Under the pieces are notes generated by a model. The model saw only the letters and a list, made by a program, of their open reading frames with translations. It was not told the DNA's origin and did no database searches. A DNA stretch of 57,963 bases, filler included, from Jimgerdemannia flammicorona (Eukaryota): assembly GCA_003990765.1 (NCBI GenBank). It is 2 parts of 2 records of this genome, joined end to end, with 100 filler letters (N's around TTAATTAATTAA, not from the genome) between each part and the next. Parts side by side here need not be neighbours in the genome. Positions count along the whole stretch, not along the records: positions 1 to 28,941 come from RBNJ01000532.1; positions 29,042 to 57,963 come from RBNJ01000533.1. One strand, given 5' to 3'. The position numbers and the translations under genes are program-made. Below are positions 13,804 to 48,228 of the stretch, piece after piece (within the stretch, counting starts at the first letter, position 1; each line of letters starts with the position of its first letter).

Positions 13804-15865
13804 TGTAAGGTGGTTACTTTTTAGGGTAACCATTACGTAGTTCTAGAAAGGTTTTCTGGATATTCTGGATATTCTGGAAGACCGTTTTCTTATGGTCAAG
13901 ATCAATTTCATATGGAGTACATCCTCTACGCTTATTGATTTCAAGATCGGATTGACGTCTCAACCAAAGTCCTTTTTCGGACTAGTTCTGGATGTTCAGG
14001 ATTTTCTATATTTCAGGAAGTTCAAGAAACTAAGACTAGCTTAGTTGAATTGGCGTATCGCTGCAGACAATACCCAATTAGGAAATTTTATGATGGGGTT
14101 AGAAGTGGGACCTAACAGGGAGCAGATTTACTTAAAAGTGGTTTGTGGGTTATGGAATAAGTTTATTTGTTATTCATGATATTACTATACTAGGAGTATT
14201 AGTGTGAAGGAATATTATGGGGAAGTATTCAGGAATGTTCTTGTGTGTTTGAGTCTGAGATTCTGAGGTCTGGGGGAGGGGGTATTTATACTAGTGAGGG
14301 GCTATCTGGACTATGCTAGATATGGATGTAGCACTAAGTGCTTTGCTGAGTCAGAATGCAGTCACATAGTACAAGTGTGATCTGACATGTCAAGAGATCA
14401 TCTGACTACTGAGTCAGTTTACAGTCACATCGTATAAGGCTAATCTAACTATACTATGACTGCTAGGCTATTTATAGGTTTAGGCACTGTCTGGGTAGTC
14501 TTCGATAACATTACCATCGATTGCATCATCTCTGATGAAGTAGTCATCTAGGAAGAGTGGTTTACAGATTATTTCTCCTTGTTCGCTGAGATAGTAATAC
14601 ATTGGGACTTCATCTCCATTCCACAGGATAGCATCGTCTGTCTCGTAGGCTGGATAAGGTGTTGGTGGGCAAAAGATAGATGTATTGTCTTCGCTTTCAT
14701 CAGATTCACTGTCTGCATACCTTCTATAGGTTATAGCACTATGAGTTGCAGGATTGTAGTAAGCTGGTGGCTGTGGTTCATGTCACTCATACTCAGGTGG
14801 TGGAGTGGTTGGTTCAATCTCGAGGGTTATCTGGAGGTACAAGTTGTGTTCTCTGGTCTCTTCATTGTAGTTGAAGTAGTCAGGGGTAAATGTGGGTTGG
14901 TATTTGTGCCAGTGGTCATTGTCCCAATAAATCTCGTATATTGTTATGAATTGTTGTAAGTTCATTGGTAAAGTTGGCGGAGTGATCAGGGTTGGCAGAG
15001 ATCCTTGGCTAGAGGTCATGTCGGCATCAGAGAGATCATTGTCTTCTGCTTCATCTTCATCGAAGTGGATTATATCATAGATGTCCTTCATGGCATATCC
15101 AACTTGGGACATTTGCAGGATTTGATCATTAGGGTGTGGGAAGGTTCTGTCTGTGGTTTCAACATACTCGAGGTACTTGTGGTTGAGTTCTTGTATCATA
15201 TCATCAATTTGGCCATAGGACAGGGCAGCAACCATTTCGCTGGTAGTAACTCGGAGGCAGGGAATAATAGTGCTGTACTCATAGAAGAGTTCTCGATATT
15301 TGCGGGCGATGAGCTTCTGGTGTTGAGACATCTGGGTAATATCTGTATTATGGTAGTGTTCACCCATATCTTTCAGAAGGCAGCTGATCTGGTAGTAGCT
15401 TGAGATTTGTCCAATTTGGTGGGCCTTGCTAAGCATGTTCAGAGCATTTCATCAGGCTTCCACAAAGTAGAGGGGTGCCAGGCTATGGATATTCATGAGG
15501 GGCAGAGGGGGTGTGGCTTGGTTGACAATGGCATTCCAAATGTCAGCACGGATACGGTTGTAGATCATGGTGGTCATGTTTGTATGTTTGGAAGTTGTGG
15601 TTGTTGTTTGTTTTGGTTCTCTGATTCAATGTGTCTCAGTGCTCGATATATATGCATTTGGTCCTGATTGGTAAGATTTCGTTTGTATAAATCTTGTGTT
15701 CTGTGACTTTGTATTGACTCAGCTTTGTGTGCTGTGACTTCGGTTTGACTCAGCTTTGTGATCAAGCAGGTGATTTCCAGATTTGTTTGGAGGTCTCGTG
15801 TGATTTCAGTGGCTTGTTCAGAGAGTAATGTATAATTTTGGTGGCTTGGAGGTTGTGCGCTTACA
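13804..15865 (-). mobile_element. Family C solo LTR (2062 bp) containing a long ORF
   Basis: tgtaag...cttaca ends with a 5-bp TSD gaatc/gaacc. TATA (~14285) and aataaa (~14165) on the minus strand. No pol. Confidence 0.85.
14480..15577 (-). pseudogene. LTR-encoded accessory protein, family C (~365 aa)
   Basis: Single frame ATG..TAA with three TGA codons, all plausibly CGA. Similar to ORF3 of A and the LTR ORF of B. Confidence 0.75.
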
Positions 15866-16207
15866 GAACCCTATCATCCAATGGAGATGCTGTATGGAAA
15901 TATATGAACATGGAAATATGGAGACTACACCAAATCAGGAAGAAGGCTGAGGATTACATAACCAAGGTGCAGACACTACAATGGAGGAATGCAGAAAAGA
16001 TCCACAAGCTCTTGGAGATTATCAAGATAGGAGACAAGGTCCTGGTGTATCGGAACATGGTAGAAGCTTCATAGTCACGAAAACTGGAGCCCAAGTAGGA
16101 AGAACCTTACCTTGTGCAAGATATAAAAGGGATCACCTTTTGGCTACGAAAACCCTCAGGTACAATAATCCCCACCACCATTCACCAAAACCAACTCAAG
16201 AAATATC

Positions 16208-16669
16208 ATGGCCAGTAACAAAAGTACCATGATGGCACTCAAGATCACTAGTGCTACTCAAAGAGCCATCGAAAGACAATGGTACACCACCGAGCCTCTG
16301 ACCATAGAGCCATACTATGAGAATATTCAGAGTATTGTGCAGACTTATCTCTCTCAGATCTTCCACTTTAGAGCCTATCAATATCGGGCAGAATTCCAAG
16401 AGTACTTCAAGCTTGGATAGGTGCTCAATCAGGATCCAGCAAAGACCAAAGAGGACTGGATTGCCGAGTGTCAACTCTCCCACTCACAGATCACTATTGC
16501 CAACAGGATCCACAAGTTATTCCAAGAAGATGAACCAGCAATAGACCACCTAAGAGGAGTAACCCCCACTGACTTTGAGAAAGTGAGGAGACATCATTGG
16601 GAAACAGTCATGCAGCAAATTGCACAGTACAAGACCATACAGACAGTTGAAGTCTGGGAGTTTGAATAG
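16208..16669 (+). pseudogene. Accessory ORF3 of family A (~153 aa)
   Basis: Two in-frame ORFs joined by one TAG (likely TGG). The ATG overlaps the integrase end. Ends just before the PPT. Confidence 0.75.
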
Positions 16670-16706
16670 ATGCCTCAGAGATGAGACCATCTATTCAGGA
16701 GGAAGT

Positions 16707-17173
16707 TGTAATGGTATAGCCGAATTAGGAAGAAGGAAATAGAGAATAGACACTTGATCACACCCATTCCCAAAGTAGTATAGCTTTATAGTTAGCAGTC
16801 CTTGATTTTGACATTGTGTAAATTCTTAGACATTATCCAAATCGAATATCCCGATTTAGTATAGCATTTAGACATTATCCAAATATTTTGACATTGTCTA
16901 AATGACTCATAACTTAGCTGCATAACTCAGTAGCCATCTCATAGCTAGCAAACTTGTATAAATAACCCAATATCTTCGAGTGAATAAACCTCAGATCGAA
17001 ATAGTTCAAAGCAAAGAGATAGCAAAGGAACTAGTAAGTCTGCAGACAGATATACTTCGAACTCACCCACCCTCTCCCACAACTTCAAGAGACTCTGCAA
17101 GAGTCAGAACAGTCAAGTTTTCAAGATACAGAAATCTGATGTACTTTCAAGAGTAAGCACCTGCTACATTACA
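16707..17173 (+). repeat. Family A 3' LTR
   Basis: TG...CA ends; direct repeat of 8394-8860. Confidence 0.93.
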
Positions 17174-17656
17174 ATAAATACCCCCTCTCTCAGATCTCAG
17201 AATCTCAGACTCAAATATATAACAACTTTTGAATACTTCTCACAATACTCCTTTATATAACTACTCCTAGTATAGCAATAATATAAATAGCAAATAAACT
17301 TATTTAATAACCTACAAACTACTCTTAAGTAAATATATACCCTATTAGGTCTCACTCCTAACTATATCATGAAATTTCCTAATAGGGTATTGTCTACAGT
17401 GATATGCTAATTCAACTAAGCTGGTCTTAGTTTCTTAAACTTTCTGAAATATAGAAAATTCTAAATATTTAGAACTAGTTCAAATAAGGACTTTGGTTGA
17501 GATATCAATCTAATCTTGAAATCAATAAGTATAAAAAATATACTCTATATAAAATTGATCTTGACTTAAAGAAAACAGTCTTTCAGAATATCCAGAACTT
17601 CCAGAAAACTTTTTCAGAACTATGTAACAGTTACTCTAACAAGTAACCCTCTTATA
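17174..17656 (+). mobile_element. Degenerate 3' half of a family-C-like LTR (target of element A)
   Basis: Reverse complement of 13804-14290 with many C>T and G>A changes. Confidence 0.85.
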
Positions 17657-19929: not shown

Positions 19930-22900
19930 ATGTCGTCCACGGTAAACAAACCCAGCGGCCGCCCTCGGGGCGTGATTAAGGGACCCAAGAAACCCGTACG
20001 TAGATCTTCGCGGGGTGGTGGTGGTCTCAGCGTGTGGTGGAGACAGTGGGATCTCGAACTAGACCCTTGTGATGGGCGAAGTGGGCTGGGTGGTTCCGTT
20101 ATACAGCTGATTCAATTACTACTGCGGCATCTCCGTACTTGACGACATTGGAAAAAAAAAAATATGGAAAAAGAGAAAAGGACAGCGAATTGTGGCGTGA
20201 GGCCTTGCTTTGCTCTGCATTTTACAACACATTTGACGCAGCAGGATTTCCACCGTGCACATGATAGGATCCGGTCACGATCAGGCGTCAACCTCGGGTT
20301 TGACACACTTTGAAAACTCGGCAAACAATTCAAGGCGGATTTGAGGTGTCATAAAACCTTTCTCATGCCACCATTCGCTTCCATTCGTCCTTCCTCGCAG
20401 TCTGGCACCGACCAACACTTCAATGACACCTGGGATCGCCTTGCCCAAGCGATCCGAGAGATCTACAAAAAGAACGCTTCCGTCCTGTCGTTCGAGGAAC
20501 TCTACCGCAACGCCTACAATATGGTTCTGCACAAGTGCGGCGACAAGCTCTACCAGGGAGTGCGCGACGTTATCACCCAACATCTTGAAGAAGTGGCCCG
20601 CGAGCAGATCGTGCCGGCATTTGGGGTCGGGACCAGAGCTGGGGGGACTGGAGCCGGAAGCGCCAGAGGTGCGTCATCGGATAGTGGGGCGGCATTCTTG
20701 AAGGTTCTGAAGAAGGTCTGGGAGGAGCATTCGACGTGCATGCTCATGATACGCGACATATTGATGTACATGGTGTGTGATGTTTTTTTCTTATCATTAT
20801 TTGATCTTCATGCGAAAATTTCTATCTCTCCATGAATTGCGCGTGTCCATCGCCATGCATCTGACCCATCCCTCTCCCCTCAGGATCGTGTGTATGTCAA
20901 AACCGCCAACGTCCCCCTTGTATATGAACTCGGTCTGGACCTCTTCCGCGACACGGTGGCCCGTTCTCCGCGGTTCCCCATCCAGCAGCACCTACGCCAG
21001 GTGATGTTGGAGCAAATCCAGCACGAGCGCGAGGGTGAGGTCATCGACCGCAGTGCCGTCAAGTCCGCCACCGACATGCTGCTCGACCTAACGGACGAGT
21101 CCCTAAAGGACAGCGTGTACGTGGCGGATTTTGAGGAGCATTACCTGAAGACGAGCGCGGCTTTCTACAAGTTCGAGAGTCAGATGCTCGTGGCTAAATG
21201 CGATACACCAGAGTATATGAAAAAGGTGAGTGGGTTTTTGGTAGAGCGGGGTTTATGTAGGGTGGGAGGAATCGAGGATGTTGTGATGTTGCTCTCTATA
21301 TCAATTGTCAGTTAATAACATGGCCAAGGGATTAAAAATGCTCGCCATTTCTGCTATTGCTCTACCTCGACTTACTCGCATACAATCGACCCACTCTAGG
21401 TCGAGAAGAGGTTGAATGAAGAACAGGAGCGAACTCGACATTATTTATCCGGGATGACCGAGCCCAAGATACAACATATTGTCGAAGAGGAGTTGATCAC
21501 GAATCATGTCAAGACAATTATGGAGGTAAATTGAATATTTCGGAGAACTCGTTTCGATCGTGGAATATGTGTGTTTTGGAGGGATTTTGCGGATTCCACT
21601 AATGATTTATTATCTTTCTTTGTAACCAACTCTATGATACATGTGCATGCAGATGGAAAACTCTGGTCTAATTCCAATGCTGACCAACGATAAAATTGAT
21701 GGTACGAATTAATGATTGGCTGGGTGTGCCTTCTGCTATGTCGATTCGTGTTGTTTCCAGTGCTGTTCCGACAATCGGCTCCATACGCCATCTTGGTGAA
21801 ATCGAGAATATCTTCCCTCCGCTAACTTCATCCACCGCGCGCCGCGACAGATTTATCCCGGATGTACAAACTCTTCTCCCGCGTTTCCACCGGCCTCCCC
21901 GAGATGCGTGCGGCCATCAGCGCTCACATAAAAAATCTAGGCAAAGACATCAACGCCAACGTGAGCTCGGGCTTTCCCTCGTCATCCGCACCTTCGGGAT
22001 CGGCCAAGGGTAAGGAGAAGGAAACGGAGAAGGAGAAGGACGACGAAGGGAAGGGTGGAAATTCGCAGGTGGCATTGCGGTGGGTGCAGGAGGTACTCGA
22101 CTTGAAGGACAAGTTCGACAGAATTTTGGAGCAGGCGGTGAACAAGGATAAAGCTTTCCAGACGGCATTTAATGAAGCGTTTGAGCGTTTCATCAACGAG
22201 AACCCTAAGTCGCCGGAATTTATCTCGTTGTTCATTGACGAGAATCTCAAGAAAGGGCTCAAAGGAGTACGTTGAACTACAATATGGATGCGTAGTTTCT
22301 GTTTCTGCTAGCTTGACCAAAAAAACTAATTTGGCTTGTATACCTCCGCCTAATTAGAAAACGGAAGAGGAAATCGACACAGTCCTCGACAAGACGATTA
22401 CCCTGTTCCGCTTTATCCAGGAGAAGGATGTGTTTGAGAGATATTATAAGCAACATTTGGCAAAACGGTTGTTGCTTGGTCGCAGTGTATCGGATGATGC
22501 GGAAAGGGGAATGATTGCCAAGTTAAAGGTGAGCACCCCTATTTTTATTATTTGTTGGGAGCGAGGGGAGTGGGTATCTGTGTTCAGTGATTCCTGAGGC
22601 CGGGGTAAAAAAATATCCTAACATTGCCATGTCCATTCATCATAACCATACTTATAATGTTTTTCTTAATCTGGAATAGGTGGAGTGCGGATATCAGTTT
22701 ACCACCAAATTGGAAGGCATGTTCAATGATATGCGAATCTCCACTGATACAATGACTGCATTCAAAGATTTCCTGGAAGTGTCAGGAGTGGAGGTTTGTT
22801 CCGACATCTTTTGCTTTTTTTTTTTTTTTTTTTTTTCTCCCCACGGAAAACACATTTTCTGATGCAATCATCTCCATTCCACCAGCGCCCAAAAATGGAC

Positions 22901-23889
22901 CTCGGTGTGACGGTGCTGACGTCTACCTTCTGGCCCATGAATGTGTCCTCGTCGCCACACTGCGTCTTCTCGCCGGAATTGGTGAAAGCGTGCCAAACTT
23001 TCGAGAAATTCTATTTTGGTCGCCATAACGGTCGTAGGTTGACGTGGCAGCCGAATATGGTATGAAAGATCCATTTAATGATATTTGGTATTTACGCACG
23101 GAAAATGTGTCTGGAGGATGTAGAGGCTAGGGATTGGACGATATTATACCACTGGTTCCGAGTATCACGGGTTATCTCTGGAGATTCTTTATTCACAAAG
23201 AGGTTGCATTTGCAGGGCAGCGCCGATGTCAAGGCACAATTCAAGAGCAACAAGAAACACGAAATCAATGTTTCCACGTACGCGATGGTATTGCTGCTAC
23301 TGTTCAATGATTTGCCAGAGGGAAAATCCTATTCGTTCAAGGTTTGTTCTACGTCAGTCTTGGGACTGACTCATTATTCACATGGTTTTATGAGAAAGAG
23401 TTGGGGAATAAAGATGGTTGCACTCACTATTAACCTATCAATATCGCGCCATATACAGGAACTACACGAACACACGAAAATCAACGATGCTGATTTAAAA
23501 CGCACGCTGCAATCCTTAGCATGTGCGAAATACAAAGTCCTTACTAAAGAACCAAAGGGTAAGGACGTCAACACGAACGACCAGTTTTACTACAACGCGG
23601 ACTTCACTTGTCCTCTTGCCCGCATCAAGATCCAGACGGTGGCAAGCAAGGTAGAAAGTGAGGGCGAGCGCAAGCACACGCAGGAGAAGGTGGACGAAGA
23701 GCGCAAGCATCAGACCGAGGCCGCGATTGTGCGCATCATGAAGGATAGGAAGACCATGGAACACAACCTGTTAATCACCGAGGTTACCAAGCAGCTGGCG
23801 CCGAGATTCATGCCAAGTCCGAGCATGATCAAGAAGCGGATCGAGGCTTTGATTGATAGGGAGTACCTAGAGAGGGCAAATGGAGATCG
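19930..23889 (+). CDS. CUL3: Cullin-3. Exons 19930-19995, 20401-20772, 20884-21225, 21400-21525, 21653-21701, 21851-22266, 22358-22528, 22680-22793, 22886-23059, 23216-23341, 23459-23889; last short exon not found
   Basis: [58 protein letters not shown], neddylation region [28 protein letters not shown] introns keep the frame. Confidence 0.95.
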
Positions 23890-23979
23890 GTAAGTAAATA
23901 TGGGATTCGAGTGCTTGTTCTGTGTTGGCCGCTTCAATACCAGATGCTTTACGGGTGTGGTTTGATGTCATATGCGTTC

Positions 23980-28941: not shown

Positions 28942-29041
28942 NNNNNNNNNNNNNNNNNNNNNNNNNNNNNNNNNNNNNNNNNNNNTTAATTAATTAANNN
29001 NNNNNNNNNNNNNNNNNNNNNNNNNNNNNNNNNNNNNNNNN
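28942..29041. other. Artificial contig linker
   Basis: 44 N + TTAATTAATTAA (stops in all six frames) + 44 N = 100 nt. Confidence 0.95.
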
Positions 29042-29095
29042 AAAAAAAAAAAAAAAAAAGGAAGAAAAGAAAATAAAGGATGGAGTCCAAGTGAC

Positions 29096-29192
<97 letters not shown>

Positions 29193-29251
29193 AAAGAAAA
29201 AAAAAAAAAATAGAAGGGAGTATTGTTAATAAAGGATGGAGTAAAAGTGAC

Positions 29252-29330
<79 letters not shown>

Positions 29331-29334
<4 letters not shown>

Positions 29335-33058: not shown

Positions 33059-33915
33059 TCTTATATTTGAATTATTGATTTTTTACTCTAGATATTAGCT
33101 ATAATAATAGATAATGTATCCAACAATACTATATTTTTTCAAACAATCAGAACAGAGTTTGATCATACTAGTCTCAACTATTAGCTAATATAATATATAT
33201 ACTACTTAGTTCATATCATTAATTTGGTTGTTCAGGACTTTTTAGTCTATTTAAAAGCTAATGATAATATATATAAGTAAAGATAGTTCTAGAGAAATAA
33301 TTTTAAAGCTTTAATTAATTATTATTAAGATCTGGTCATTACTATAATATTGAGAGAGATTTATTGCACAATATTAAGCTTTTAGAGTCTGCAATCCAAA
33401 AGAATTTTTTTTAGATATTAAAACTCAATAGAATTCAATATATTTAATAGTTAAACAGACTTTAGAATTATCAGAGATATATAAGCTAATTATATTATAT
33501 TTAATTTTTTTATTAATAATCTTTAATCTCAATAATTATAACTAATAAAGATTTGCAAATATACTGTAGAAGACTATACTTAGTAGATACTAAAAGATAT
33601 TATTGATATACTAAAGTACTTTAAACAAGTAATAGATCTTATAGCTTATTATAAATATTGTAACAGTGATCTCAGAATGATAACATCAGTACAGGAGATA
33701 GCCTTTCCTTATAAGCCACCAGATCAGAGTACAAGAAGATCATACAGCATGACTCACCCAGGCTATAAGATGAGCAATGATGACCAACTATGAGTCATTG
33801 GGACCACCAGACAGATATCTTGAGAAATATAAAAGAAGGATCAAAGAACTGTAGTAGCAGTAACTCAATAAGATCTACTAATCCTGAAATAGCTCAAAGA
33901 CTTATCACAAACAAA

Positions 33916-34737
33916 ATGCCTGCTGTTTGCCAAACCTCAAGGTCAAGAAATCACCAAGGCTCCTCAATCCAGAAAAGGATGTTCTAAGACATCTGAAGAG
34001 CCATAAGGACCCACACTACAAGGACTCTTAGTGTCAATCTGAGTACTGGTGACCCTTATCATTATATTCTCTACTACTGCAAGATGGAAACAAGAATCAC
34101 CATTGCTACCAAATACCTTCAGATGTAGTAAGAATACAAAATAAGAAACCTCCTCTGCTGGGAATTCCCTCAAGCCAGCCCTCAAGAGCTATAAGATACC
34201 ACTTCTATAGATATATATAAAATAAAGATAGCCAAGAAGATTCATCAGATCTTCAGATATGTACTATGGTTGATCTCCAACTTAGAGTATATCAGAGTCT
34301 CAGACTTCAGAGATCTATCAGCCTGCCATATCAATATACTAGAAGCTATAGTGGTTAAAGAAGCCCAGTCAACTATCATCCTCAATAGTGATGAGATAGA
34401 AGAGTTCTGGTATTCCATCTTCCAGGACAACCCAGATCAATTTCTGCAAGGATTGATCTCAGTATTCCAAGGCCCAAGTATCCAGATTAGACCTTCCCAA
34501 GACCCTACATTTATTCCTTATTTTGTGGAAGAGAACCTCATAGACTAGAGAGCCTCAGATCTCCTCACTCTCTCTACTACCAAACATGATGACATTATTG
34601 GCAATGATGTCATCCTGTGTGATATATACAAAATATGTGATAAAGTACATGAAATGGATAAAATATTTGTAGACCTCATTTTTTTTGAGAACAGCAATGA
34701 GGACAAAGTCCCTATGGTTCTGAACTTTCTGCTCTAA
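33916..34737 (+). pseudogene. LTR-encoded accessory protein, family B (copy in 5' LTR)
   Basis: MPAVCQTSRSRN...MVLNFLL*. Homologous frames at 30554-31369, 40084-40917(-), 47153-47986(-) and ~49822-50615. Confidence 0.7.
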
Positions 34738-37700: not shown

Positions 37701-39607
37701 TGAGATCTTTCTCATAGTCAGGAATTACAACCCCATCACTCCATTCGAAGTCAAGAAGTATGACAGGATTGGCCAGATGCTGATTCATAAAGTCAAGAAG
37801 CCTAAGATTACTGAAGCTATTGAACTCATCAAGACCAAGAGAGGAGAACAAGGCTTTGGATCTACTGGAAGAGGAGCCTATGCTGTCACTAAGATTACTG
37901 AACTTAAGTATAAGAAAGACAAGGGCCAGAACAAGCACATATGTATATACCATTGGAGAAAACTTTCCTCTAGAAGAACAACTTCTCAAGATCCTGTACC
38001 AGAACAAAGAAGTACTTGCTACAGACTTCAGGGATATCCATAATCAAAAATCCAAGTACTACCATGAAGTTGACACCAGTGATACCAAGCCCATCTATCA
38101 GAAAGCCAGATCTATACCACCTGCCTATAGAGAATGGCTGCGAGCAGAACTCAAGAAAATAAAAGAAGCCAGAATCATCAAGCAAGCTATCAGCTCTTGG
38201 ACTTCACTCATTGTCCTCACCCCCCAAAAATAAAGCAAGTCTGGAGAGTTTGCCTCAAGACTCTGCATTGATTACAGAAAGCTCAATGTAATCACCAAAA
38301 AGGATAGGCCGCCTTTGCCAAATATTTAAGAAATTCTTACCACTCTTAAAAGTGAAGTCAAATACTACACCACCTTGGATCTGTTCTCAGGCTTCCATCA
38401 GATTGGTCTCACTTAAGATGCCAGTGAGAAATTAGCCTTCATCACACCTGATGCCACCTATGTCTACCTGCAAATGCCATTTGGAATGTACAATGCTCCA
38501 GTAAGTTTTCAGCAAATGATAAATAGAGTCTTCAGCAATGAGATTGAAAAATGACTCTTTGTTATATTAATGATGTGATCATCTTCAGTAATACTGTATG
38601 GGAACATATCAACTATATATAACTAGCTCTCAAGAAGCTCAAGGAGTATGGCCTCTACATCAAGCCCAAGAAGTGCAAGTTTGCAGTCTGAGAAATTGCC
38701 TACTCAGAACACATCATCAATCAGACCAGAATTTATATGGATCTCATAAAGATTGAGACTGTTGCAGCCTACCCAAGATCCAGGATAACTACAGAAGTCC
38801 ATGCCTTTCTTAGACTGGCCTCCTACTACAGAAGATTCATCAAAGGATACTCTAACATTACAGCACCTATCTATGAGCTAAAGAAGGAAACTAAATTCAA
38901 ATGAACCAAGAAATGTTAAGAAACCTTCAATGAACTCAAGATCAGATTGACTCAAGCACCTATCCTCAGAAGACCAGATTGAAACCTAGAGTTAATCCTG
39001 CAAACAGACACAAGTACTATAGAACTAGGAGCAGTCCTAGCTCAGAAGAAAGATGAACATAAATATATCATCTCTTATGCAAGCCAAGGTATCTGTAGAG
39101 CAGAACAGGACTATGAGTTATACAAGCTTGAATAGTTAGCAGTAGTTTGGGCAGTAGACAAATTCTACTACTACTTAGCTGGAAAATACTTCACTATTCA
39201 AACAGACCATTCTGCTCTTGCCTAGCTATTCCACACTCTGAACTCCAAAGGAATATATGTCAGATAGATCTACAAACTGCAAGAGTATGACTGTACTGTC
39301 AAACATTGCTCAGAAAGAACTAATGCCAATGCTGATGCACTCTCAAGGACACCCAAAACACCCCCATCAAGACTATTCAATATGAATAAGGAGCTATACT
39401 ATGGATTAATCAGCTATCTTGGGCAGCAGAAGATGCTCAACCCTCTCAAACCCTGAACTATCACTATCATCAACCAGACTTGGAAACAATTTGAACTAGA
39501 CAACACTATACTCAGAAAAGGAAGAAAGCTCATAATATCCAAACATAAGAAATATTAAGTAATGAAGGAAGTATATGAACAAGGACACTTAGGAGAAATC
39601 AATATAT

Positions 39608-42600
39608 TGTCACATAGTGGTCGCTGAGTCCTTCAAATATGCCAGATTCTCTTCAAGGTATATCTCTTAGACTAACTCAAGTTGTTATAAGCAAGTTCTT
39701 ATTGGAGTGCCTTCCCAAGGTCTTATAGTCCTCAAACTTCTTATCTTTAACTGTCTTGTTATCTCTTAGATTGCTTGCAAGGGATTGTGTATTGCACTGA
39801 ACTTGACTGACTTTATTTCAGAGGAAATAAGAGGGGTATTTATACAAAATACAATTCAATGGTTGCTAATATATAAAGCTAAATATAAATTCCAATAACT
39901 AAAACTACTAAGTTCCAGAGTCGGTACTGATGGTTGTACAGGTTCAGGATGCTGGCATTATTTAGTATCACATCAAAATGTCAGTGCTGGAACAATCTTG
40001 CATCACCTCAGAATACCGGTGCTGGCATTATCCAGTATTACATGAGAATACCAGTGCTGGTATTATCTAGTATAACACAGAACTTAGAGCAGAAAGTTCA
40101 GGACCATGGGAGCTTCATCCTCATCATCATTATCACTGAAAGAGATGAGATCTGCAAATTCATCATTTTTGCATACTTCATTATGCATCTTGCATATGTC
40201 AATGTTGCATGGAATAACATCATTGCCAATGACGTCATCCTGTTTGGCTGTGGTGGGAAGATCAGGAACAAGATCTGGAGCTCTCCAGTCTATGAGGTTC
40301 TCTTCTACAAAATAGGGAACAAATGTTGGGTCTTAGGGAGGTCTAACCTGGATGCTTGGGTCTTAGAATACTGAGATCAATCCTTACAGGAATTGGTCTG
40401 AGTTGTTCTGAAGGATAGGATGCCAGAAGTCTTCTACTTCTTCACTGTTGAGGGTGATAGTGGACTGGGCTTCTGTAGCCACCCTGGCTTCTAGTGCATT
40501 GATATGGCAGGATGATAGGTCTCTGAAGTCTGAGACTCTAACATACTCCAAGTTGGGAATCAACTATAGTACATGCCTGAAGATCTGATGGATCTTCTTA
40601 GCTGTCCTTGTTTTGCATATATCCACAGGAGTGGCATCTTATAGCTCTTGGGTGCTGGCTTGTGGGAACTCCTGGCAGAGGAGGTTTTCTATTTCATACT
40701 CCTGCCACATTTGGAGGCATTTAGTAGCAATAGTGATCCTTGTTTCCATTTCATGGTGGTAGAGAATGAAGTGATAAGGGTCTGCAGTACCCAGGTTGAT
40801 ACTAGGAGTCCTTCTTGAGCAGGTCCTCATGGCTCTTCTAATGTCTTGGAACATCCTTTCCTTGACCGAGATACCTTGGTAATTCCTTGACCTTGAGGTT
40901 TGGCAGGTAGCAGGCATTTCATTTGTAGTAAGTCTTTGAGCTATTTTGGAATTGGTGGTTCTTGTTAGTTGCTGCTACTGTAGTTCCTTGATCCTTCTTT
41001 TATATTCTTCAGGATGTTTGTACTGTGGTCACAATGACTTACAGTTGGTCATCATTGCTCATCTCATATGCTGTATGATCTTCTTGTGCTCCGATCTGGT
41101 GGCTTGTAAGGAAAGGCTATCTCTGGTACTGATGTCATCATTCTGGGGTCACCATTACATCTTTCTCCTGAATAAGGATCTTCCTGAGCATCCTTATTCA
41201 TTGGTCCAGTCTTGAAAAATTTGCTGATCCCATAACCTCTGGTAAGGGGTTGAAAACTGGTATTTATGGGCTAGCATCTTCCCTTTGTATTTTGGCATAA
41301 TAGTGAAGAGTTGCTCCCTTCATATAGAGCAAGGGCCTGATTCTGATCTTGACCAATCAGTTGACGGTTTGAACTCCTCTAACTTCGAAAGTCTCATAGA
41401 TGAGTAGTTGCCAGTGCCATATCTCTTAGAGAATGGTCTAGACAGATAGCCTACTGGTCATGGGACATGCTGTTATGATTTGCAGACTAGAACCTCATGG
41501 GCAGTCATCACATTTTGCTTCTCTTGTATAGGTTCATGGTACTTCTTGAGTCTGTTCCTATGTACTGTGGTAGACAGTATGGTCCCTGAGATTTTTCTAA
41601 GCCAGAAGGTAGTTCCCTTGATATCTTGCATATAGAAGGGTCCTTCCCATTTGGGCTCCAGTTTTCACGACCATGAGGCTTCTACCATATTTTGATACAG
41701 TAGAACCTTTTCTTTGATTCAGATGGGTTCTAGGGCCTTGTGATTCTTTTCCGCATTCTTCCTTATCAGCGCTTGTGACTTGGTGATGTAATCTTCAGCC
41801 TTCTTCCTGATTTGGTGTAGTCTCCAGATTTCTGCATCAACCCATCTCTAAGTTAGGTCTAGATTTGTGGCTGAGGTTCCATCAGAATCTTCTTCTCTGA
41901 AGAGCAGCTCTCTTAGGGTAAAATGTGTGCTCTGTGACCATATGTCTCATAGAACAGAGAGGGCAGTTGGGAGATAGTTATCCCAATTCTCATATGTCTC
42001 TGAGATCTTTGCTAGGATGTTCTTGAGGGTCTTGTTGGTTCTTTCTGTTTGTCCATTTTCTTGAGGGTGGTATGCAGTGGTCTTGATGTGCTGGATCTTA
42101 TATTTCTGATACATTATCTTGTGGAATCCATTAACAAATTCTGTACCATGGTCTGTTGTGATTTGCTTTGGTGTCTTGTAGCAGCAGATGATTTCTCAGT
42201 GTAGGAAGTCAGCTATAGAGAGGGCATTGGCTTCTTGTAATGCTCCTGCCTCTATCCATTTAGTGAAGAGGTCTACAATAACTATAATATAGCAGTTTCC
42301 TGATAGTATTACTGATAGTGGTCCAATGATATCCATTGTGATGTGGTGGAAGGGGATAGGCTCAATTCTTAATGATCCAGGTGCCTGGTCTTGCTGATCT
42401 TGTTTCTGTTTTTGGCACTTGTCACACTCTTTGACAAATTGGTGCAGGTCTTCTTCCATCTTGGGCCACTACATGGTTCTTCTTACCTTGTCATATGTGT
42501 TGGTTCCTCCTAAGTGTCCTTGCTCATGTACTTCCTTCATTATTTGATACTTCTTGTATTCAGGTATTACTAGCTTTCCTCCTTTTCTGAGTATAGTGTT

Positions 42601-45600
42601 GTCTAATTCAAACTGTTTCTAAGTCTGGTTGATGATGGTGATTATCCAGGGTTCGAGATGGTTGGGCATCTTCTGCTACCCAAGGTAGCTGATTAATCCA
42701 TAGTATAGCTCTTTATTTATGTTGAGTAGTCTTGATGGAGGTGTTTTGGAGTGTCCTTGAGAGTGCATCAGCATTGGTGTTGGTCTTTCCTGAGTGGTGC
42801 TTGACAGTACAGTCATACTCTTGCAGCCTGTAGATCCATCTGGCATATATTCCTTTGGAGTTCAGAGTGTGGAATAGCTAGGCAAGAGTGGAATGGTCCA
42901 TTTGAATGGTGAAGTGTTTTCTGGCTAGATAGTAGTGGAACTTGTCTACTGCCCAAACTATTGCTAAGCATTCAAGCTTGCATGACTTGTAGTTCTGTTC
43001 TGCTCCATGGGTACCTCAGCTTGCATAGGAGATGACATATTCATGTCCATCTTCTGAGCTAGGACTGCTCTAAGTCCTATAGCACTCACATCTGTCTGCA
43101 GGATGAATTCTAGGTTCCAGTCTGGTCTTCTGAGGATGAGTGCTTGGGTCAACCTGGTCTTGAGTTCATTGAAGGTTTCTTGGCACTCCTTGGTCCATTC
43201 GAATTTGGTCTCCTTCTTCAGTAGCTCATAGATAGATGCTGCAATATTGGAGTATCCTTTGATAAATCTTCTGTAGTAGCTGGGCAGTCCAAAGGAAGGT
43301 GTGGACTTCTGTAGTTGTTCTGGGTCTCAGGTAGGCTGCAACAGCCTCAATATTTATGGGGTCTGTGTGGATTCCAGTCTGGTTGATGAGGTGTCCTAGG
43401 TAGGCAATTTCTTGAGCTGCAAACTTGCATTTCTTGAGCTTGATATAGAGGCCATGCTCCTTGAGCCTCTTGAGGGCTAGCTGTATGTAATTGATATGTT
43501 TCCATATAGTGTTGCTGAAGATGATCACATCATCAACATAGATAAAGAGCCATTTTCCAATCTCGTTGCTGAAGACTCTGTTCATCATTCACTGGAAACT
43601 TGCTGGGGCATTGCACATTCCAAATGGCATTCGCAGATAGATATAGGTAGCATCAGATATGATGAAGGCTGATTTCTCACTGGCATCTTAAGTGAGACTG
43701 ATCTGATGGAAGCCTGAGAACAGATCCAAGGTGGTGTAGTATTTGGCTTTACTTCTAAGAGTGGTAAGGATTTCTTGAATATTCGGCAAGGGCTGCCTAT
43801 CCTTCTTGGTGATGGCATTGAGTTTCCTGTAGTCAATGCAGGGTCTTGGTACAAACTCTCCAGGCTTACTTCCTTTCTTTGGGGCAAGGACAATGGGTGA
43901 GGCCCAGGGGCTGATAGCTTGCTTGATGATTTTAGCTTCTTCTATTTCCTTGAGTTCGGCTCACAGCCACTCTCTGTAGGCAGGTGGTATGGGTCTGGCT
44001 TTCTGATAGATAGGCTTGGTATCACCAGTGTCAACTTTATAGTAGTACTTGGGTTCTTGATTGTGGATATCCCTAAAGTCTGTAGCAAGTACTCCTTCAT
44101 TCTGATACAGGATCTTGAGAAGTTGTTCCTCCAGGGGAAAGTTTTCTCCAATGATATATGTGTGCTTGTTCTGGTTCTTGTCTTTCTTGTGCTCAAGTTC
44201 AGTAATCTTGGTAGCAGCATAGGCTCCTCTTCTAGTAGATCCAAAGCCTTGTTCTCCTCTCTTGGTCTTGATAAGTTCAGTGACTTCTATGATCTTGGGC
44301 TTCTTGATTTCATGGATCAGCATCTGGCCAATCCTGTCATACTTCTTAACTTTGAAGGGGGTGGTGTGGTTGTGATTTCTGACTATGAGAAAAATCTCGC
44401 CAGTGTAATCAGGGTCAATTACTCCTCCTTCAACTGAGATTTCACTTTTGGCCAGACTGCTCCTAGTCTTGATAATTCTGGCATGGTTTTCTGACAACTT
44501 GACTCCAATTCCAGTGCCAAGTAGGATGGTGGTCTGTGGTTCAAGGGTAGCATCTTGGATACTGGCAAGGTCCATTTCTATGGCTCCTTCAGTCTTGTAT
44601 TCTGGGATCTTGGCTTCAGGGTGAAACTTCTTGACCTTGAGGGTGATGTCTGATTCTTGTTCCTCCTCATCGTTACTGTCAGCTTGAAGCTCTGGGGGCT
44701 GGTCATCTTCTTCAGCTTTCCTTTTTGCTTCAGCAGCTTCTTGCTTATGTTTCTGTTGGCAGATTTTCCTGACTTCACTGATACAGGACCAGCAGTCATT
44801 CAGGTGTTCAGAGCAGTACATTCTAGTACCATGGGGGTATCTTCCTTGAGGGGCATACCTATCGATGATCTTGTTATACCACTGCTCATCTGTGAGCTTG
44901 GGTGTCTTGTTCTTGTTCTTGTTCACTAAGTGCATGAAGACCTCTGTGTCTTCTTCATCTCCTTCCTCTATGTCTAGCAGGACTCTTTTGTGGAAATTGA
45001 TAGAAACTCATACCTTTCTTCCTCTGTAGTTGATCTGTATCTTCTGGACATTGAGGTTAATGATGGCCTTGGCCTTGTGAAGCCATTGGTTGCCAATGAG
45101 GATATCATAGTTGGTGGCACTTATAACAATCACATCTACTGGAATGGTAGCTCCTCCTATCTTGATGGAGACTTCTCAGATTTTGCTAAGGGGGGTAGCT
45201 CGTGTACCATCTGCTGTGACATAGACCATCTTGGTGGACTCTTCAATGTCCCAACCTAGGTAGTCAATTGCCTTCTTGCTCATGAGGCATCCTCCAGCAC
45301 CAGTATCAATGATGGTATCAAAGATACAGTCTTCAATCTGGCAGGGGGTATAGGCTGATGTCTTGTGCTGGTCTTCGGATTCTTCACCTAAGTTCTCAGA
45401 TTCTTCTTGTGTATTGTTAGCTTCTATGATCTTGTACTCTTGATTCTTGATGATAGTTGCAAGTCCTACTCTCAACTGCTGTCTGAAGGCAGGGACTTCA
45501 GCTAGTTGCCCAAAAGTGGCATTGACCTTCTGTTCCTTGAGGTCCTTGTAGATATCATACTGGTGGATCTTGGTCTTGTGCAGCTTCTGTTCCTTCTTGC

Positions 45601-48228
45601 TCTCACTTTCTCCTGAGACTGGAGTAGTGCCTTCGATAATTTAGTGGGCAGCTTCATCTAACTCCATGTCTTGATCAATCTCCTCAGACTGGGTCTTGCT
45701 TTGAATAGTGATAGCTGGAGTCTTCTTTGGTCTTCCAACTGGCTTGCTGTTGCTCTTCTTGTCATAGGGCTTGGACCAGGTTCTGGTACCTTCAGTAGCA
45801 GGATAGAATTTGAGCTCCTCCTGCAAATCTCTGCACTGGTCTCCTGTTGGTGCTTCAGACTTCTCTAACAACATCACCGAGGTGTGTAGTCATCTTGGCA
45901 AACTGCTTGGCAAGTTCTTCCACTGGATCAGCTTTGGCTGTCTTGGGAGTAGGTGGGGTTGGTTGTCTGTTTATAACTATGGCAGGTAAGATACTAGTTG
46001 GCTTTGATGGCTCCATCTTGATGCCAGTTATTTTCTCCATTGAGTGTTCAGTAGGGTGTCTGGCAGTCCAATATCTCTGTGCAAAGACCACTTTCTGATC
46101 AAGAGTCAGTGCAGCTGGGGTAGACCAGATTTCTAGGGCAATTTCAGAGTGAACTCCTTTGAGGAAGGTTGAATCCGCTATTTGTTCCTTGAGGGTATCA
46201 TCATAGCCAGCCAAGACAATCTGGTGGCAGATTCTGGTATAGAATGAGTTGGGATCTTCACTAAGTCCCTAGCAGATAGTATTGAGTTGATCCTTGAGAG
46301 CTTGCTTGATCTCTTCAGTATAATATGTTATTCTGAGAAAGGTCTTCATGTTGATAAGTTTGACTGCATCAGCACCAGCAATGGTGGCTGCATTAAACTT
46401 GTCTCTGGCAGGTTCTCTGAGGCTGACTGGTAGAAGGGCCAATTGAGCATCCACACCAAGGGCTCGTATAGCAGCAAATTGTTCAAAGTCTTCAATAAAG
46501 GTCAGGATTGACTCTTTAGTAGTATATCCATAGAATGTGGGGGGATGCATTTCCATCTTATCTTGAATTCTTGCAGGGGTGACTCTTGTAGTCAGGGTAG
46601 TTGTTGTGGGGGTTGTTCGTTTTTCAGCTTGAAAGTGAGGGATTCATCTTGAATCACCAGCCAATGGGCACCAAGTTGTCATGTAGTGGTCGCTGAGTCC
46701 TTCAAATATGCCAGATTCTCTTCAAGGTATATCTCTTAGACTAACTCAAGTTGTTATAAGCAAGTTCTTATTGGAGTGCCTTCCCAAGGTCTTATAGTTC
46801 TCAAACTTCTTATCTTTAACTGTCTTGTTATCTCTTAGATTGCTTGCAAGGGATTGTGTATTGCACTGAACTTGACTGACTTTATTTCAGAGGAAATAAG
46901 AAGGATATTTATACAAAATACAATTCAATAGTTGCTAAGATATAAAGCTAAATATAAATTTCAATAACTAAAACTACTAAGTTTCAGAGTCAGTACTGAT
47001 GGTTGTACAGGTTCAGAATGCTGGCATTATTTAGTGTTACATCAAAATGCCAGTGCTAGAACAATCTTGCATCACCTCAGAATACTGGTGCTGGCATTAT
47101 CCAGTGTTACATGAGAATACCAGTGCTGGTATTATCCAGTGTAACACAGAACTTAGAGCAGAAAGTTCAGGACCATGGGAGCTTCATCCTCATCATCATC
47201 ATCACTGAAGGAGATGAGATCCACGAATTTATCATTTTTATATACTTCGTTATGTGTCTCATATATGTCAATGTTGCGTGGAATGACATCATCACCAATG
47301 ATATCATCCCATTCAGCTGTGGCAGGAAGATCAGGAACAAGATCTGGAGCTCTCCAGTCTATGAGGTTCTCTTCCACAAAATAGGGAACAAATGTGGGGT
47401 CTTGGGGAGGTCTAACCTGGATGCTTGGACCTTGGAATACTGAGATCAATCCTTGCAAGAATTGGTCTGGGTTGTCCTGAAAGATAGGATACCAGAAGTC
47501 TTCTACTTCTTCACTGTTGAGAGTGATAGTGGACTGGGCTTCTGTAGCCACTCTGGCTTCTAGTGCATTGATATGGTGGGATGATAGGTCTCTGAAGTCT
47601 GAGACTCTAACATACTCCAAGTTGGGGATCGACCATAGTGTATGCCTGAAGATCTGATGGATCTTCTTAGCTGTCCTTATTTCATGTATATCCATGGGAG
47701 TGGCATCTTGTTACTCTTGGGTGCTGGCTTGTGGGAACTCCTGGCAGAGGAGGTTTCCTATTTCATACTCCTGCCACATTTGGAGATATTTGGTAGCAAT
47801 AGTGATCCTTGTTTCCATTTCACGGCAGTAGAGAATGAAGTGATAAGGGTCTGCAGTACTCAGGTTGACACTAGGAGTCCTTCTTGAGCAGGTCCTCATA
47901 GCTCTTCTGATGTCTTGGAATATTCTTTCCTCAACTGAGATACCTTGGTAATTCCTTGACCTTGAGGTTTGGCAGGCAGCAGGCATTTCGTTTGTGGTAA
48001 GTCTTTGAGCTATTTTGGGATTGGTGGTTCTTATTGGTTGCTGCTACTGTGGTTCCTTGATCCTTCTTTTATATTCTTCAGGATGCTTGTGCTGTGGTCA
48101 CAATGACTCACAGTTAGTCATCATTGCTTATCTCATATGCTGTATGATCTTCTTGTGCTCTGATCTGGTGGCTTGTAAGAAAAGGCTGTCTCCAGTGCTG
48201 ATGTTATCATTCTGGGGTCACCGTTACA
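39608..48228 (-). mobile_element. Ty3/Gypsy family B element, full length, nested (LTRs 46677-48228 and 39608-41159, 1552 bp each)
   Basis: TG...CA LTRs, intact PBS at 46676, PPT aggagaaaga, apparent TSD ATAT. IIDTGAG, GGVIDPDYTGEI..RGEQGFGST, YVDDV, VDLFTKW. The gag CCHC region appears deleted. Confidence 0.95.
47153..47986 (-). pseudogene. LTR-encoded accessory protein, family B, best-preserved copy (~278 aa)
   Basis: 91-aa and 180-aa ORFs in the same frame, separated by one stop. tataaaag lies ~80 nt upstream. Confidence 0.8.

Follow-up and report, generated by a model that had tools for sequence, protein, structure and literature searches.

Extra genes are rare in LTR retrotransposons, and they show how retrovirus-like complexity is acquired. 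The window analysed here, 57,963 nucleotides of Jimgerdemannia flammicorona DNA (two parts of assembly GCA_003990765.1 joined by 100 filler letters), contains nested Ty3/gypsy elements of the domain order gag-PR-dUTPase-RT-RH-IN. A sequence-only reading of this DNA proposed that three different LTR families, A, B and C, carry one uncharacterised accessory protein, perhaps a helical regulator. Is there such a protein family, where does its gene lie in the host elements, and what might the protein do?

Element A (8394–17174, plus strand; gag with CCHC motif, PR, dUTPase, RT, RH and IN) has 468 bp LTRs (8394–8861 and 16707–17174) that are 92.7% identical. Its primer-binding site (PBS) directly follows position 8861, and its polypurine tract (PPT, aggaggaagt) is located at 16697–16706, downstream of the accessory gene. 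The latter has 153 codons (16208–16669, plus strand), begins with MASNK and is interrupted by one in-frame TAG (16418–16420). It directly abuts the integrase, after the GPY/F end of that protein, and lies internally, ahead of the PPT, which makes it a true ORF3. An intact homologue of 153 aa (P0010) has the same start and end.

The B LTR, 1,553 bp long, has five copies in the window. Element B1 (39607–48228, minus strand), a Ty3/gypsy element with the target-site duplication (TSD) ATATA, is nested in the integrase of B2; its LTRs (39607–41159 and 46676–48228, minus strand) are 92.8% identical. The B1 PPT, AGGAGAAAGA (41169–41160, minus strand), is upstream of the ORF, which therefore lies within both LTRs of B1, as it does within both LTRs of B2. 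The least decayed copy, in the 5′ LTR of B1 (47153–47986, minus strand; LTR positions 243–1076), has a single in-frame TAA (47713–47711), and the copy in the 3′ LTR (40087–40917, minus strand) has five stops. On the plus strand, the copies in the 5′ LTR of B2 (ORF 33868–34734, LTR 33666–35247), in its 3′ LTR (ORF 49777–50613, LTR 49572–51125) and in the LTR of the truncated element B3 (ORF 30497–31366, element 29334–31856) have six, nine and seven in-frame stops, respectively. P0005, an intact relative of 271 aa, starts and stops as the window ORF does.

C is a solo LTR of 2,063 bp (13803–15865, minus strand) with TG...CA ends and the target-site duplication GAATC/GAACC, inserted in the integrase of A. 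Its ORF (14480–15577, minus strand; LTR positions 289–1386, ATG at 15577) contains two adjacent TGA codons at 15454–15449 and a third at 14785–14783. The N-terminal domain matches the intact homologue P0019 and the tail matches another relative, P0009. A fourth, heavily decayed copy (54744–55310, minus strand) encodes a C-terminal tail with the motif P-L-V-L-N-F and resembles L001, a metagenome relative; its decayed PPT and LTR start (54794–54744) follow the ORF, as in A. In L001 itself a PPT-like tract and the TGTAAT with which the LTR starts come directly after the stop codon of a 291-codon ORF.

The gene is thus a sense ORF downstream of pol in bona fide LTR elements, for which LTR pair, TSD, PBS and PPT were mapped (C being a solo LTR with its TSD). 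A location inside the LTR held only for B and C, the A copy being internal.

Do these ORFs encode one protein? All nine pieces of the peptides that had been aligned by hand were found at 16391–16585 in A (plus strand), 47779–47585 in B (minus) and 15406–15221 in C (minus), and the pattern RI..DI..A...P..N....P..F, said to be shared by B and C upstream of them, was in register in the family alignment. The three ORFs indeed had no nucleotide similarity to one another. Pairwise protein similarity was weak. A and B matched with 30.4 bits (E 1e-5 in pairwise blastp, 0.002 in tblastn against the whole window), B and C with E 0.009 (1.8–3.1 against the window), and A and C with E 0.12; on such scores alone the membership of C would not be convincing.

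Membership, including that of C, was settled because external relatives allow profiles that leave out one family at a time. The search set for these HMMs comprised 4,985 sequences, of which 3,600 were shuffles, 1,364 were six-frame pieces of the window, 18 were family proteins and three were window read-throughs. Of seven external A members, the profile lacking A matched six (best E 1.1e-12, 46 bits); it also matched the window A at 2e-11, the best shuffle scoring 0.023. Without B, eight of nine external B-like proteins (best 5.4e-10) and the window B (2.4e-8) were found, against 0.11 for the best shuffle. Without C, the profile matched P0019 (2e-6, 25.6 bits) and the window C (5e-5; best shuffle 0.18). 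Comparison of deeper profiles with hhalign supported the family and gave probabilities of 89.9% for A-B (E 1.7e-6), 96.2% for B-D, 83.4% for A-D and 53.3% for B-C (E 1.3e-4, 118 columns), with 30.1% for C-D; the direct A-C link reached only 2.1% (E 0.023). By this pattern C is joined to the family via B and D, and not directly to A.

The family spans at least five sub-lineages: A, B with its B2/E relatives, C, D and the L001 type. The description of the protein as uncharacterised was borne out: eight of the nine external members scanned had no Pfam match at E<=1, the ninth (P0008) had only an NpmA match of 14 bits against a cutoff of 60, and no relative was found among PDB sequences (best E 0.15). 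The window ORFs had no Pfam match at E<=0.01, the Chromo model included, in agreement with the view that the domain is not a chromodomain. Intact homologues come only from short metagenome contigs, where they are annotated as "hypothetical proteins".

Every window copy examined (7/7) contains stops: one in A, three in C, and one, five, six, nine and seven in the B copies. All are pseudogenes, decayed through CpG-type transitions. That this genome damages its repeats was confirmed by a CpG observed/expected ratio of 0.08–0.40 in the elements, compared with 1.03–1.16 in host genes, and by the dominance of transitions among the changes. Evidence of coding comes from the relatives, in which the frames are open over 153–342 codons, with conserved ends, down to 42% identity; the starts and stops of P0010, P0005, P0019 and the L001 ORF agree with those of the window ORFs. 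The dN/dS ratio proved uninformative as a measure of constraint, the neutral control (two LTRs of one element) giving 0.27–0.35 and the comparison between lineages 0.29. Differences between lineages are most frequent in third, then first, then second codon positions: 26/13/41 for positions one to three between the inferred pre-insertion states of B1 and B2 (p 6e-4), and 126/87/160 between L001 and B (p 2e-5), which share 42% amino-acid identity; one neutral control, the two LTRs of B2, had some third-position excess too (36/24/52, p 0.005). Conservation of coding sequence beyond one element family is indicated by the leave-one-out profiles, the shared ends and the codon-position bias together. 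We are highly confident that the gene is real, a hitherto unnamed accessory gene of a single dUTPase-bearing Ty3/gypsy clade, encoding an all-helical domain of about 135 residues.

How did the gene come to be in these elements? The families are not all unrelated, A and B being 65–68% identical in nucleotides across gag-pol. A and B also have a common domain order and PBS, and the LTR of C agrees with theirs in its TGTAA... terminus and its GTATAAATA core promoter. Vertical inheritance within one Ty3/gypsy clade, combined with a relocated PPT, explains the distribution better than three independent acquisitions. In every lineage no further sense ORF follows the accessory gene in the genomic RNA; what differs is the start of plus-strand priming. 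Where the PPT comes after the ORF, as in A and the L001 type, the gene is internal. Where it comes before, as in B and C, the gene and a leader of about 240–290 nt have become part of U3, and consequently are copied into both LTRs and into each solo LTR. The LTRs of B (1.55 kb) and C (2.06 kb), compared with 468 bp in A, are unusually long because the last ORF lies in U3. The lineages thus form a natural before-and-after series of a gene shifting from the internal region into U3 by PPT relocation.

Promoter-like features accompany the ORF. A TATA-like box, TATAAAA (48067–48073, minus strand), precedes the B start codon by 87 nt and is identical in all five B copies. Counterparts are found 86 nt upstream of the ATG in A (16122, inside the integrase coding sequence), 80 nt upstream in L001 and, as a weak TATATAT, 75 nt upstream in C (15652); at a motif density of 0.0019 per base the chance of such a box is 0.024 per 13-nt window, in a test made post hoc. 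Over a 29-nt leader that surrounds the ATG, B and L001 are 93% identical, even though their coding DNA can no longer be aligned. A tandem repeat of 35 bp, 3.7 copies long (47019–47146, minus strand, in U3), separates the B ORF from the main promoter, in what may be an enhancer-like position. The main core promoter of the LTR, GTATAAATA, occupies 46880–46913 (minus strand, box at 46913), with AATAAA 27 nt downstream (46886); the corresponding boxes are at 16957 in A and 14290 in C. The B and C ORFs lie upstream of this main TATA (LTR positions 1316 of 1,553 and 1576 of 2,063, respectively). Among metatranscriptome contigs, whose kind is uncertain, two pieces from soil and none from root fell on B elements.

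The predicted structure agrees with the expected helical protein. The AlphaFold2 model of P0010 has seven helices (mean pLDDT 86.3, pTM 0.78), and that of P0005 has the same helix order at residues 18–149, with a tail (217–271) below pLDDT 50; the agreement is not independent, because both models used the same family alignment. The domain is also predicted to be dimeric, the model passing its controls: the median score was 0.47 against 0.00 for the best control, the interface comprised residues 40–94, the runs shared at least 81% of contacts, and the pLDDT of the partner was at least 63. The predictor is language-model based and was benchmarked on solved structures only; of the microbial ones, 21 of 30 homodimers and 0 of 23 monomers attained its mark, and of the eukaryotic ones 17 of 29 and 0 of 30. 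The most conserved motif is a short helix, a 3-residue turn and a 14-residue helix, and in the family alignment helix 4 has a conserved pair of positive residues and a conserved F.

The A protein consists of the domain alone (153 aa) and has no acidic tail. B, C and their relatives add to the domain a tail that is long, acidic, rich in proline and disordered and that in B-like proteins ends in the short hydrophobic motif P-x-V/I-L-N-F. The acidic tails reported for B and C were found (pI 4.1); five of six tailed relatives scored had a tail pI of 4.1–4.3 (5.9 in P0022), with 9–24 prolines. The domain itself is not basic (pI 5.9–6.9). The highest 19-residue Kyte-Doolittle mean across eight proteins was 1.05, in line with the claim that there is no TM segment and that the protein is not env; in place of a signal peptide and transmembrane anchor, the models have a soluble helical domain and a disordered tail.

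Foldseek gave no match at E<=0.001 in PDB or BFVD, and fold comparison gave no significant match to any DNA-binding domain (best Z 4.1 for the A model and 4.8 for the B model). No capsid chain was among the structural matches listed, and the family HMMs did not match the gag frames of the window. Like the ParB/VirB/SopB and TetR-type helix-turn-helix (HTH) domains, the protein is helical and a predicted dimer, and a short helix, a turn and a further helix make up its most conserved motif. VirB (3vwb) scored Z 3.6 with the A model and 3.5 with the B model, and SopB (3mky/3mkw) 3.5/3.2 with the A model only, the alignments, all weak, covering residues ~60–153. No sequence signal links the family to those domains, and its own domain is not basic. 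The best Z scores with HTH domains (3.2–4.1; 3.2–3.6 for VirB, SopB and TetR-type) fall far short of the Z of 8, or about 13 for helical proteins, below which the tool warns of noise; the resemblance is a lead only.

A gene of this kind, an ORF3 or a U3-embedded accessory gene, is already known; the protein is a different one. In complex retroviruses accessory genes overlap the U3 of the 3′ LTR: tas/bel of foamy viruses, which has an internal promoter, sag of MMTV and nef of HIV. The last ORF of B (243–1076 of 1,553) and C (289–1386 of 2,063), but not that of A, likewise overlaps U3, and upstream of the ORF there is a candidate dedicated promoter. This likeness is one of gene organisation, and the hosts here, unlike complex retroviruses, are env-less retrotransposons, in one of which (A) the gene lies outside U3. 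As in DNA-binding activators, a structured domain is combined with an acidic tail, transcription, DNA binding and activation all being putative here. Like the ORF3s or additional ORFs of LTR retrotransposons, the gene is sense, downstream of pol and non-env, has dUTPase-bearing Ty3/gypsy-like hosts and recurs across several element families. It differs from them in the protein, which lacks any esterase, exonuclease or env signature and belongs to no Pfam family, in lying inside the LTR in two lineages, and in that its hosts are related, which makes inheritance simpler than capture. One of the 'add. ORFs' of PMC2864245 may be a relative. Another extra, uncharacterised gene of a fungal Ty3/gypsy element is brtn, which Boty-like Gypsy elements carry in Botrytis cinerea (Zhao et al. 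2011, as cited in PMC8365987); by that account it is antisense, the ORFs here being sense.

What might the protein do? A transactivator or anti-silencing role, as suggested from the sequence, is compatible with the evidence. Our tentative preference, still short of probable, is an element-encoded dimeric regulator, analogous to a transactivator, acting on its own LTR promoter. The protein would be made from its own transcript, started at the TATA-like box 75–87 nt upstream of the start codon, and would dimerise antiparallel through its long second helix. The dimer would present two helix-turn-helix-like lobes, with the invariant basic pair on the fourth helix, and act in trans on the LTR promoter of the element, the acidic tail serving as an activation or recruiting module. 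Tail-dependent activation cannot be general, because A has no acidic tail.

An unlikely but serious alternative is an antagonist of host defence, in which a helical dimer scaffold carries a fast-evolving, acidic and proline-rich tail that would bind and neutralise a component of host silencing, be it methylation, heterochromatin or RNAi. The elements are under attack, as their strong CpG depletion (0.08–0.40) indicates; the disordered acidic tails differ greatly from lineage to lineage, both in sequence and in length, but retain a short C-terminal motif, a pattern that may be typical of host-interaction modules, and a DNA-binding fold could not be assigned. However, no homology or fold match to known suppressors was found, A-type proteins keep the domain without the tail, the window copies were not protected from decay, and nothing ties the protein to a host target.

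Rather less probable is an RNA-binding adaptor (a Rev/Rex-like export or translation factor) or a particle-associated helper of packaging or reverse transcription, as the 3′ ORF of a retroelement encoding a predicted dimeric helical protein with a conserved basic pair, and with an arginine-rich first helix in B-type proteins, might suggest. Conservation of the arginine-rich stretch does not extend to A, C or D, however, the pI of the domain is near neutral, no capsid or RNA-binding protein was among the fold matches listed, and an acidic tail would be unusual in an RNA binder. We consider it improbable that the protein is an integration-targeting or chromatin-tethering factor replacing the chromodomain of many fungal Ty3/gypsy integrases. 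Pfam detected no chromodomain in the integrase tails of A and B, and the A ORF directly abuts the integrase end, but the B/C gene is set apart from pol by the PPT and ~240–290 nt, no fold match to chromatin readers was found, and nothing points to interaction with integrase or chromatin. That the frames are fortuitous, and their similarity due to common non-coding ancestry or chance, can hardly be right: it would accommodate the stops in all seven window copies, a dN/dS that cannot tell selection from the neutral control and the marginal pairwise scores of C, but the leave-one-out E values (1e-12 to 2e-6, against 0.02 or worse for shuffles), the relatives' open frames of 153–342 codons with conserved ends, the confident predicted fold, the codon-position bias between lineages and the protein similarity of the A, B and C ORFs persisting after nucleotide similarity is gone all disfavour it.

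Returning to the dimeric regulator, a bolder and rather doubtful extension would make the B/C LTR a self-contained gene comprising TATA, ORF, U3 repeats, main promoter and poly(A) signal, so that any LTR, solo LTRs included, could supply a dimeric regulator activating the family. It would be the first regulatory gene in the style of complex retroviruses in an env-less retrotransposon, created when the plus-strand primer site moved upstream of an older ORF3. The protein family has no known relative and a confident predicted fold, and since intact sequences exist in public metagenome data, it is testable now. Should the protein turn out to control its own LTR or to oppose silencing, it would offer a handle on how retrotransposons persist in a methylating, mutating genome, and solo LTRs would not be inert.

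The window is eukaryotic and rich in repeats, with nested LTR retrotransposons flanking three intron-bearing host genes identified by Pfam: a cullin gene (20314-23890), a gene for an HD-domain protein and a gene for an Rrn6-like protein. The element map was drawn from self-comparison of the window and inspection of the junctions. The self-BLAST repeat map missed a 3-kb inverted duplication (3-3013 / 4144-7153), which was seen by direct comparison, so further matches may be absent. The segment 4144-7153 (+) is 93% identical over 3,011 bp to the reverse complement of 3-3013; these are head-to-head copies of an LTR-like retroelement (window 1-8073) with direct repeats at 3660-4176 and 7558-8073 (94% identity). 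Its ~1,000-codon frame gave only a weak RVT_1 match (E 0.008) and has a YIDD motif; gag, protease and integrase were not found in this frame. Unlike A, B and C, the LTR elements carrying the accessory ORF, the 1-8073 element is not depleted in CpG (o/e 0.87, GC 0.51).

A and B are Ty3/gypsy elements with the order gag (CCHC), aspartic protease, dUTPase, RT, RNase H and integrase (Pfam, 140 stop-free frames). Element A (8394-17174, + strand) has 468-bp LTRs of 92.7% identity, a primer-binding site (PBS) after the 5′ LTR and a polypurine tract (PPT), aggaggaagt, which abuts the 3′ LTR at 16707. Element B1 (39607-48228, - strand), with 1,553-bp LTRs of 92.8% identity and the target-site duplication ATATA, is nested in the integrase of the older copy B2 (33666-51125, + strand), which it interrupts; a third copy, B3 (29334-31856), is 5′-truncated. 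At the truncated edge of B3, where the assembly is uncertain, two runs of 44 N each (28942-28985 and 28998-29041) precede a degenerate array of short-period repeats (29024-29386). C is a solo LTR of 2,063 bp (13803-15865, - strand) with TG...CA ends and a GAATC/GAACC duplication, inserted in the A integrase. C-type LTR pieces in differing orientations flank A (17175-17654 and 8093-8270); the former comprises the 480 bp at the 3′ end of such an LTR, in whose TATA box A landed. The upstream part of this right-hand LTR would be expected in the left flank of A (8271-8393), but the sequence there does not match it. A 1.5-kb LTR of A with a deletion in the 5′ copy was considered and rejected: the match between 8093-8281 and 15689-15876 is the end of C-type LTR fragments. 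The LTRs start with TGTAATGG in A and B and with TGTAAG in C, and all three have the same core promoter, GTATAAATA, with AATAAA after it.

The dUTPase domain lies between protease and RT in A (10601-11350), B2 (37528-38040) and B1 (43964-45007), with Pfam E values of 2.5e-16 to 5.9e-26. Some basidiomycete Gypsy elements are reported to have this arrangement (PMC2864245). In the B elements ~390 nt without a recognised domain separate the GPY/F module of the integrase from the PPT (41160-41550, -; 48900-49570, +; 30000-30326, +), and profiles of the accessory family matched weakly within this region at 48930-49124 (E 0.007-0.011).

The peptides quoted in the sequence-only reading, which had claimed one accessory protein family carried by three different LTR families, were found exactly where it placed them. 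The A ORF (16208-16669, +) starts with MASNK directly after the integrase GPY/F module, in a different frame, and has one TAG. The B ORF (47986-47153, -) lies in the 5′ LTR of B1 and has one TAA; four more B copies have 5, 6, 9 and 7 stops. The C ORF (15577-14480, -) has three TGA codons. Nucleotide similarity between the three ORFs was not found, in agreement with that reading, and pairwise protein similarity was weak: 30 bits for A-B, E 0.009 for B-C and E 0.12 for A-C in the pairwise space, with A-B alone remaining below 0.01 when searched against the whole window. The first, shallow profiles connected C no better. hhalign gave probabilities of 62% (A-B), 1.5% (B-C) and 0.9% (A-C), and family-only HMMs built from 5-6 close sequences gave A-B bit scores of -2.5 to 4, with no C match and at most 4 bits across families.

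Significance across families arose only once more divergent relatives were added. Word-indexed searches yielded intact close homologues of each ORF, all of them unnamed or "hypothetical" predictions on metagenome contigs of 0.5-4.8 kb. P0005 (271 aa) matches B at its start and end, P0010 (153 aa) does the same for A, and P0009 spans the tail of C. When a mixed A+B+C profile was run with HMMER against all 1.84 billion representatives, it matched only 11 proteins; the gains were P0019, an intact N-terminal domain of C, the more distant B-like proteins P0016, P0017 and P0020, and P0022, which represents a further lineage, D. Viral contigs scanned with P0010 and P0005 contained no relatives.

Family unity was assessed with leave-one-family-out HMMs on 4,985 sequences (18 family proteins, 3 window read-throughs, 1,364 six-frame window pieces and 3,600 shuffles). 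With A left out, 6 of its 7 external members were found, the best at 1.1e-12, and the window copy scored 2e-11 against 0.023 for the best shuffle. Leaving out B recovered 8 of 9 external B-like proteins (best 5.4e-10; the missed one is a tail-only fragment), the window copy (2.4e-8) and a best shuffle at 0.11. With C left out, P0019 was the best external match (2e-6), followed by the window copy (5e-5), and the best shuffle was at 0.18. A B-like-only profile found D at 1.8e-12, A at 9.6e-6 and C at 6.7e-4. With the deeper profiles hhalign gave 96.2% for B-D, 89.9% for A-B, 83.4% for A-D, 53.3% for B-C (E 1.3e-4, 118 columns), 30.1% for C-D and 2.1% for A-C. The test is slightly circular because the bridging sequences came from a profile containing all three families. 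A, B and D certainly form one family, and C very probably belongs to it as the most divergent member. The claim of a single protein family thus stands for A and B and very probably for C, but the carriers are not three unrelated element families: by their sequences A and B are related elements, with 65-68% nucleotide identity in gag-pol and an identical PBS.

On the genomic RNA the ORF comes after all other sense ORFs in every case, and its position relative to the PPT differs. In A the PPT is downstream of the ORF, which is therefore internal. In L001, a metagenome contig relative, an intact 291-codon ORF is directly followed by a PPT-like tract and the LTR start TGTAAT, and a heavily decayed remnant (54744-55310, -) also has the ORF before the PPT. 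The surrounding segment, 51200-55500, which holds the ORF tail of the remnant (54812-55310), is very AT-rich (GC 0.27-0.29), has tandem ~150-bp repeats at 52369-52996 and looks like repeat DNA in an extreme state of decay. With the PPT upstream of it, the ORF of B and C lies in U3. The B ORF occupies LTR positions 243-1076 of 1,553 and the C ORF positions 289-1386 of 2,063, with the main TATA downstream of the ORF at 1316 and 1576, respectively. The U3 behind the B ORF (~240 bp) is as long as the whole U3 of A (~250 bp). The simplest history would be that an ancestral ORF3 lay before the PPT and that a later upstream relocation of the PPT swept it into the LTR.

A TATA-like box precedes the start codon by 87 nt in B, 86 nt in A, 80 nt in L001 and 75 nt in C, where it is weak; in B it is identical in 5/5 copies. 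Given the motif density of the window, the probability that any one 13-nt interval contains such a match is ~0.024 (post hoc test). B and L001, whose coding DNA can no longer be aligned, are still 93% identical over a 29-nt leader surrounding the ATG. An origin of the B LTR leader by duplication of the integrase 3′ end was rejected (z 2.3-2.4, not significant). B also carries a 35-bp x 3.7 tandem repeat with the ORF on one side and the main promoter on the other. L001 has a 28-nt direct repeat (86% identity) at 170-197, upstream of the ORF, and at 1481-1508, ~220 nt into the presumed LTR. Expression runs were chosen via the cullin gene. Two small runs of uncertain kind from 'organism A' (that they are RNA is a guess) contained B-like contigs with high word depth over the LTRs; pieces of the B element were present in 0 contigs of a root metatranscriptome and as 2 small pieces in a soil metatranscriptome, from which neither expression nor absence follows.

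AlphaFold2 with the family alignment predicted an all-helical structure for P0010 (mean pLDDT 86.3, pTM 0.78; helices 2-21, 40-75, 81-88, 92-105, 109-114, 120-124 and 128-151), in keeping with the helical protein that had been proposed. The P0005 model has the same seven helices in the same order at 18-149 and a tail (217-271) below pLDDT 50; the two models are not independent because one alignment was used for both. The most conserved motif falls on helices 3-4 and consists of a short helix, a 3-residue turn and a 14-residue helix with an invariant basic pair and a phenylalanine, a spacing which resembles a helix-turn-helix (HTH). With a pI of 5.9-6.9 the domain is close to neutral; the proline-rich tails are acidic (pI 4.1-4.3; 5.9 in D). 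By hydropathy, the ORF proteins have no TM-like segment, as had been stated. The homodimer prediction passed its controls, with a median score of 0.47 against 0.00 for the best control, at least 81% of contacts shared between runs and a partner pLDDT of at least 63; of solved structures from microbes, 21/30 homodimers and 0/23 monomers attained the mark, as did 17/29 and 0/30 of those from eukaryotes. In the predicted interface the long helices of the two chains run antiparallel.

Taking the family, its anatomy, the fold prediction, the acidic tails and the motif positions as established, we tentatively propose that the product is an element-encoded dimeric regulator of the transcription of its own element. 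It would be expressed from a dedicated promoter at the upstream TATA-like box; the helical domain would serve as the module for dimerisation and nucleic-acid binding, and the acidic tail may act as the effector, presumably in activation. Foamy-virus tas is among the retroviral accessory genes that overlap U3, and the organisation of the ORF may be likened to that of these genes. Against a regulator, the domain carries no marked charge, A is without a tail and no known fold matched it in the structure searches. An antagonist of host silencing, which the sequence-only reading had named beside a transactivator in view of heavy mutation of repeats, is a rather unlikely alternative. An RNA adaptor or particle protein seems a little less likely still, and a tether for integration improbable.

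CpG is strongly depleted, and specifically so in these elements. Its o/e ratio, 1.03-1.16 in the host genes, falls to 0.08-0.12 for B, 0.27 for A and 0.40 for C; TpG+CpA is over-represented and transitions dominate the copy-to-copy differences. The pattern is consistent with deamination of methylated repeats rather than with a process that targets CpA. The window C has two TGA codons at the R-W of P0019, which would be the expected product of CpG-type transitions.

All ORF copies in the window are dead. The proposed check by dN/dS, run among the B copies, was uninformative: the between-lineage ratio was 0.29, yet LTRs of one element, which differ only by post-insertion mutation, gave the same ratio (0.27-0.35), which the transition-heavy mutation spectrum explains. 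Differences at codon positions 1/2/3 were more telling, with 29/17/28 between the two LTRs of B1 (p 0.17), 26/13/41 between the inferred pre-insertion B1 and B2 (p 6e-4) and 126/87/160 between the L001 ORF and B (42% amino-acid identity, p 2e-5); the test is not clean, since the neutral pair of B2 LTRs was somewhat biased too (36/24/52, p 0.005). In the diverged relatives frames of 153-342 codons are open with conserved ends, and among the A, B and C ORFs protein similarity outlasts DNA similarity, which together with the confident fold prediction argues for a real, once-functional gene; that the ORF has no function is scarcely credible.

An already described retroelement protein was not recognised by Pfam, the PDB profile search, Foldseek or the literature. 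Pfam gave no match on the accessory ORFs among 140 window ORFs and 9 intact relatives, the best E in the PDB sequence profile search was 0.15, and Foldseek gave no match at E<=0.001 against PDB (both models) and BFVD (A model). In a wide VIA-align search with both models nothing rose above noise (best Z 4.1 and 4.8); VirB, SopB and TetR-type HTH domains recurred at Z 3.2-3.6, within noise. The ESM Atlas returned unnamed clusters only, and the several neighbour clusters common to A and B were not counted as evidence. Published work depicts fungal Gypsy elements with extra ORFs of unknown function (PMC2864245), reports an antisense gene, brtn, in Boty elements (cited in PMC8365987) and describes several ORF3 types shared across lineages of rotifer LTR elements (PMC5408684). 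In a search of open-access article texts, neither the ORF protein nor an LTR-embedded ORF from a fungus was found described. We rate the ORF as a new protein family in the niche of ORF3 and U3 accessory genes, whose element lineages lay out the relocation of the PPT as a clear natural series.
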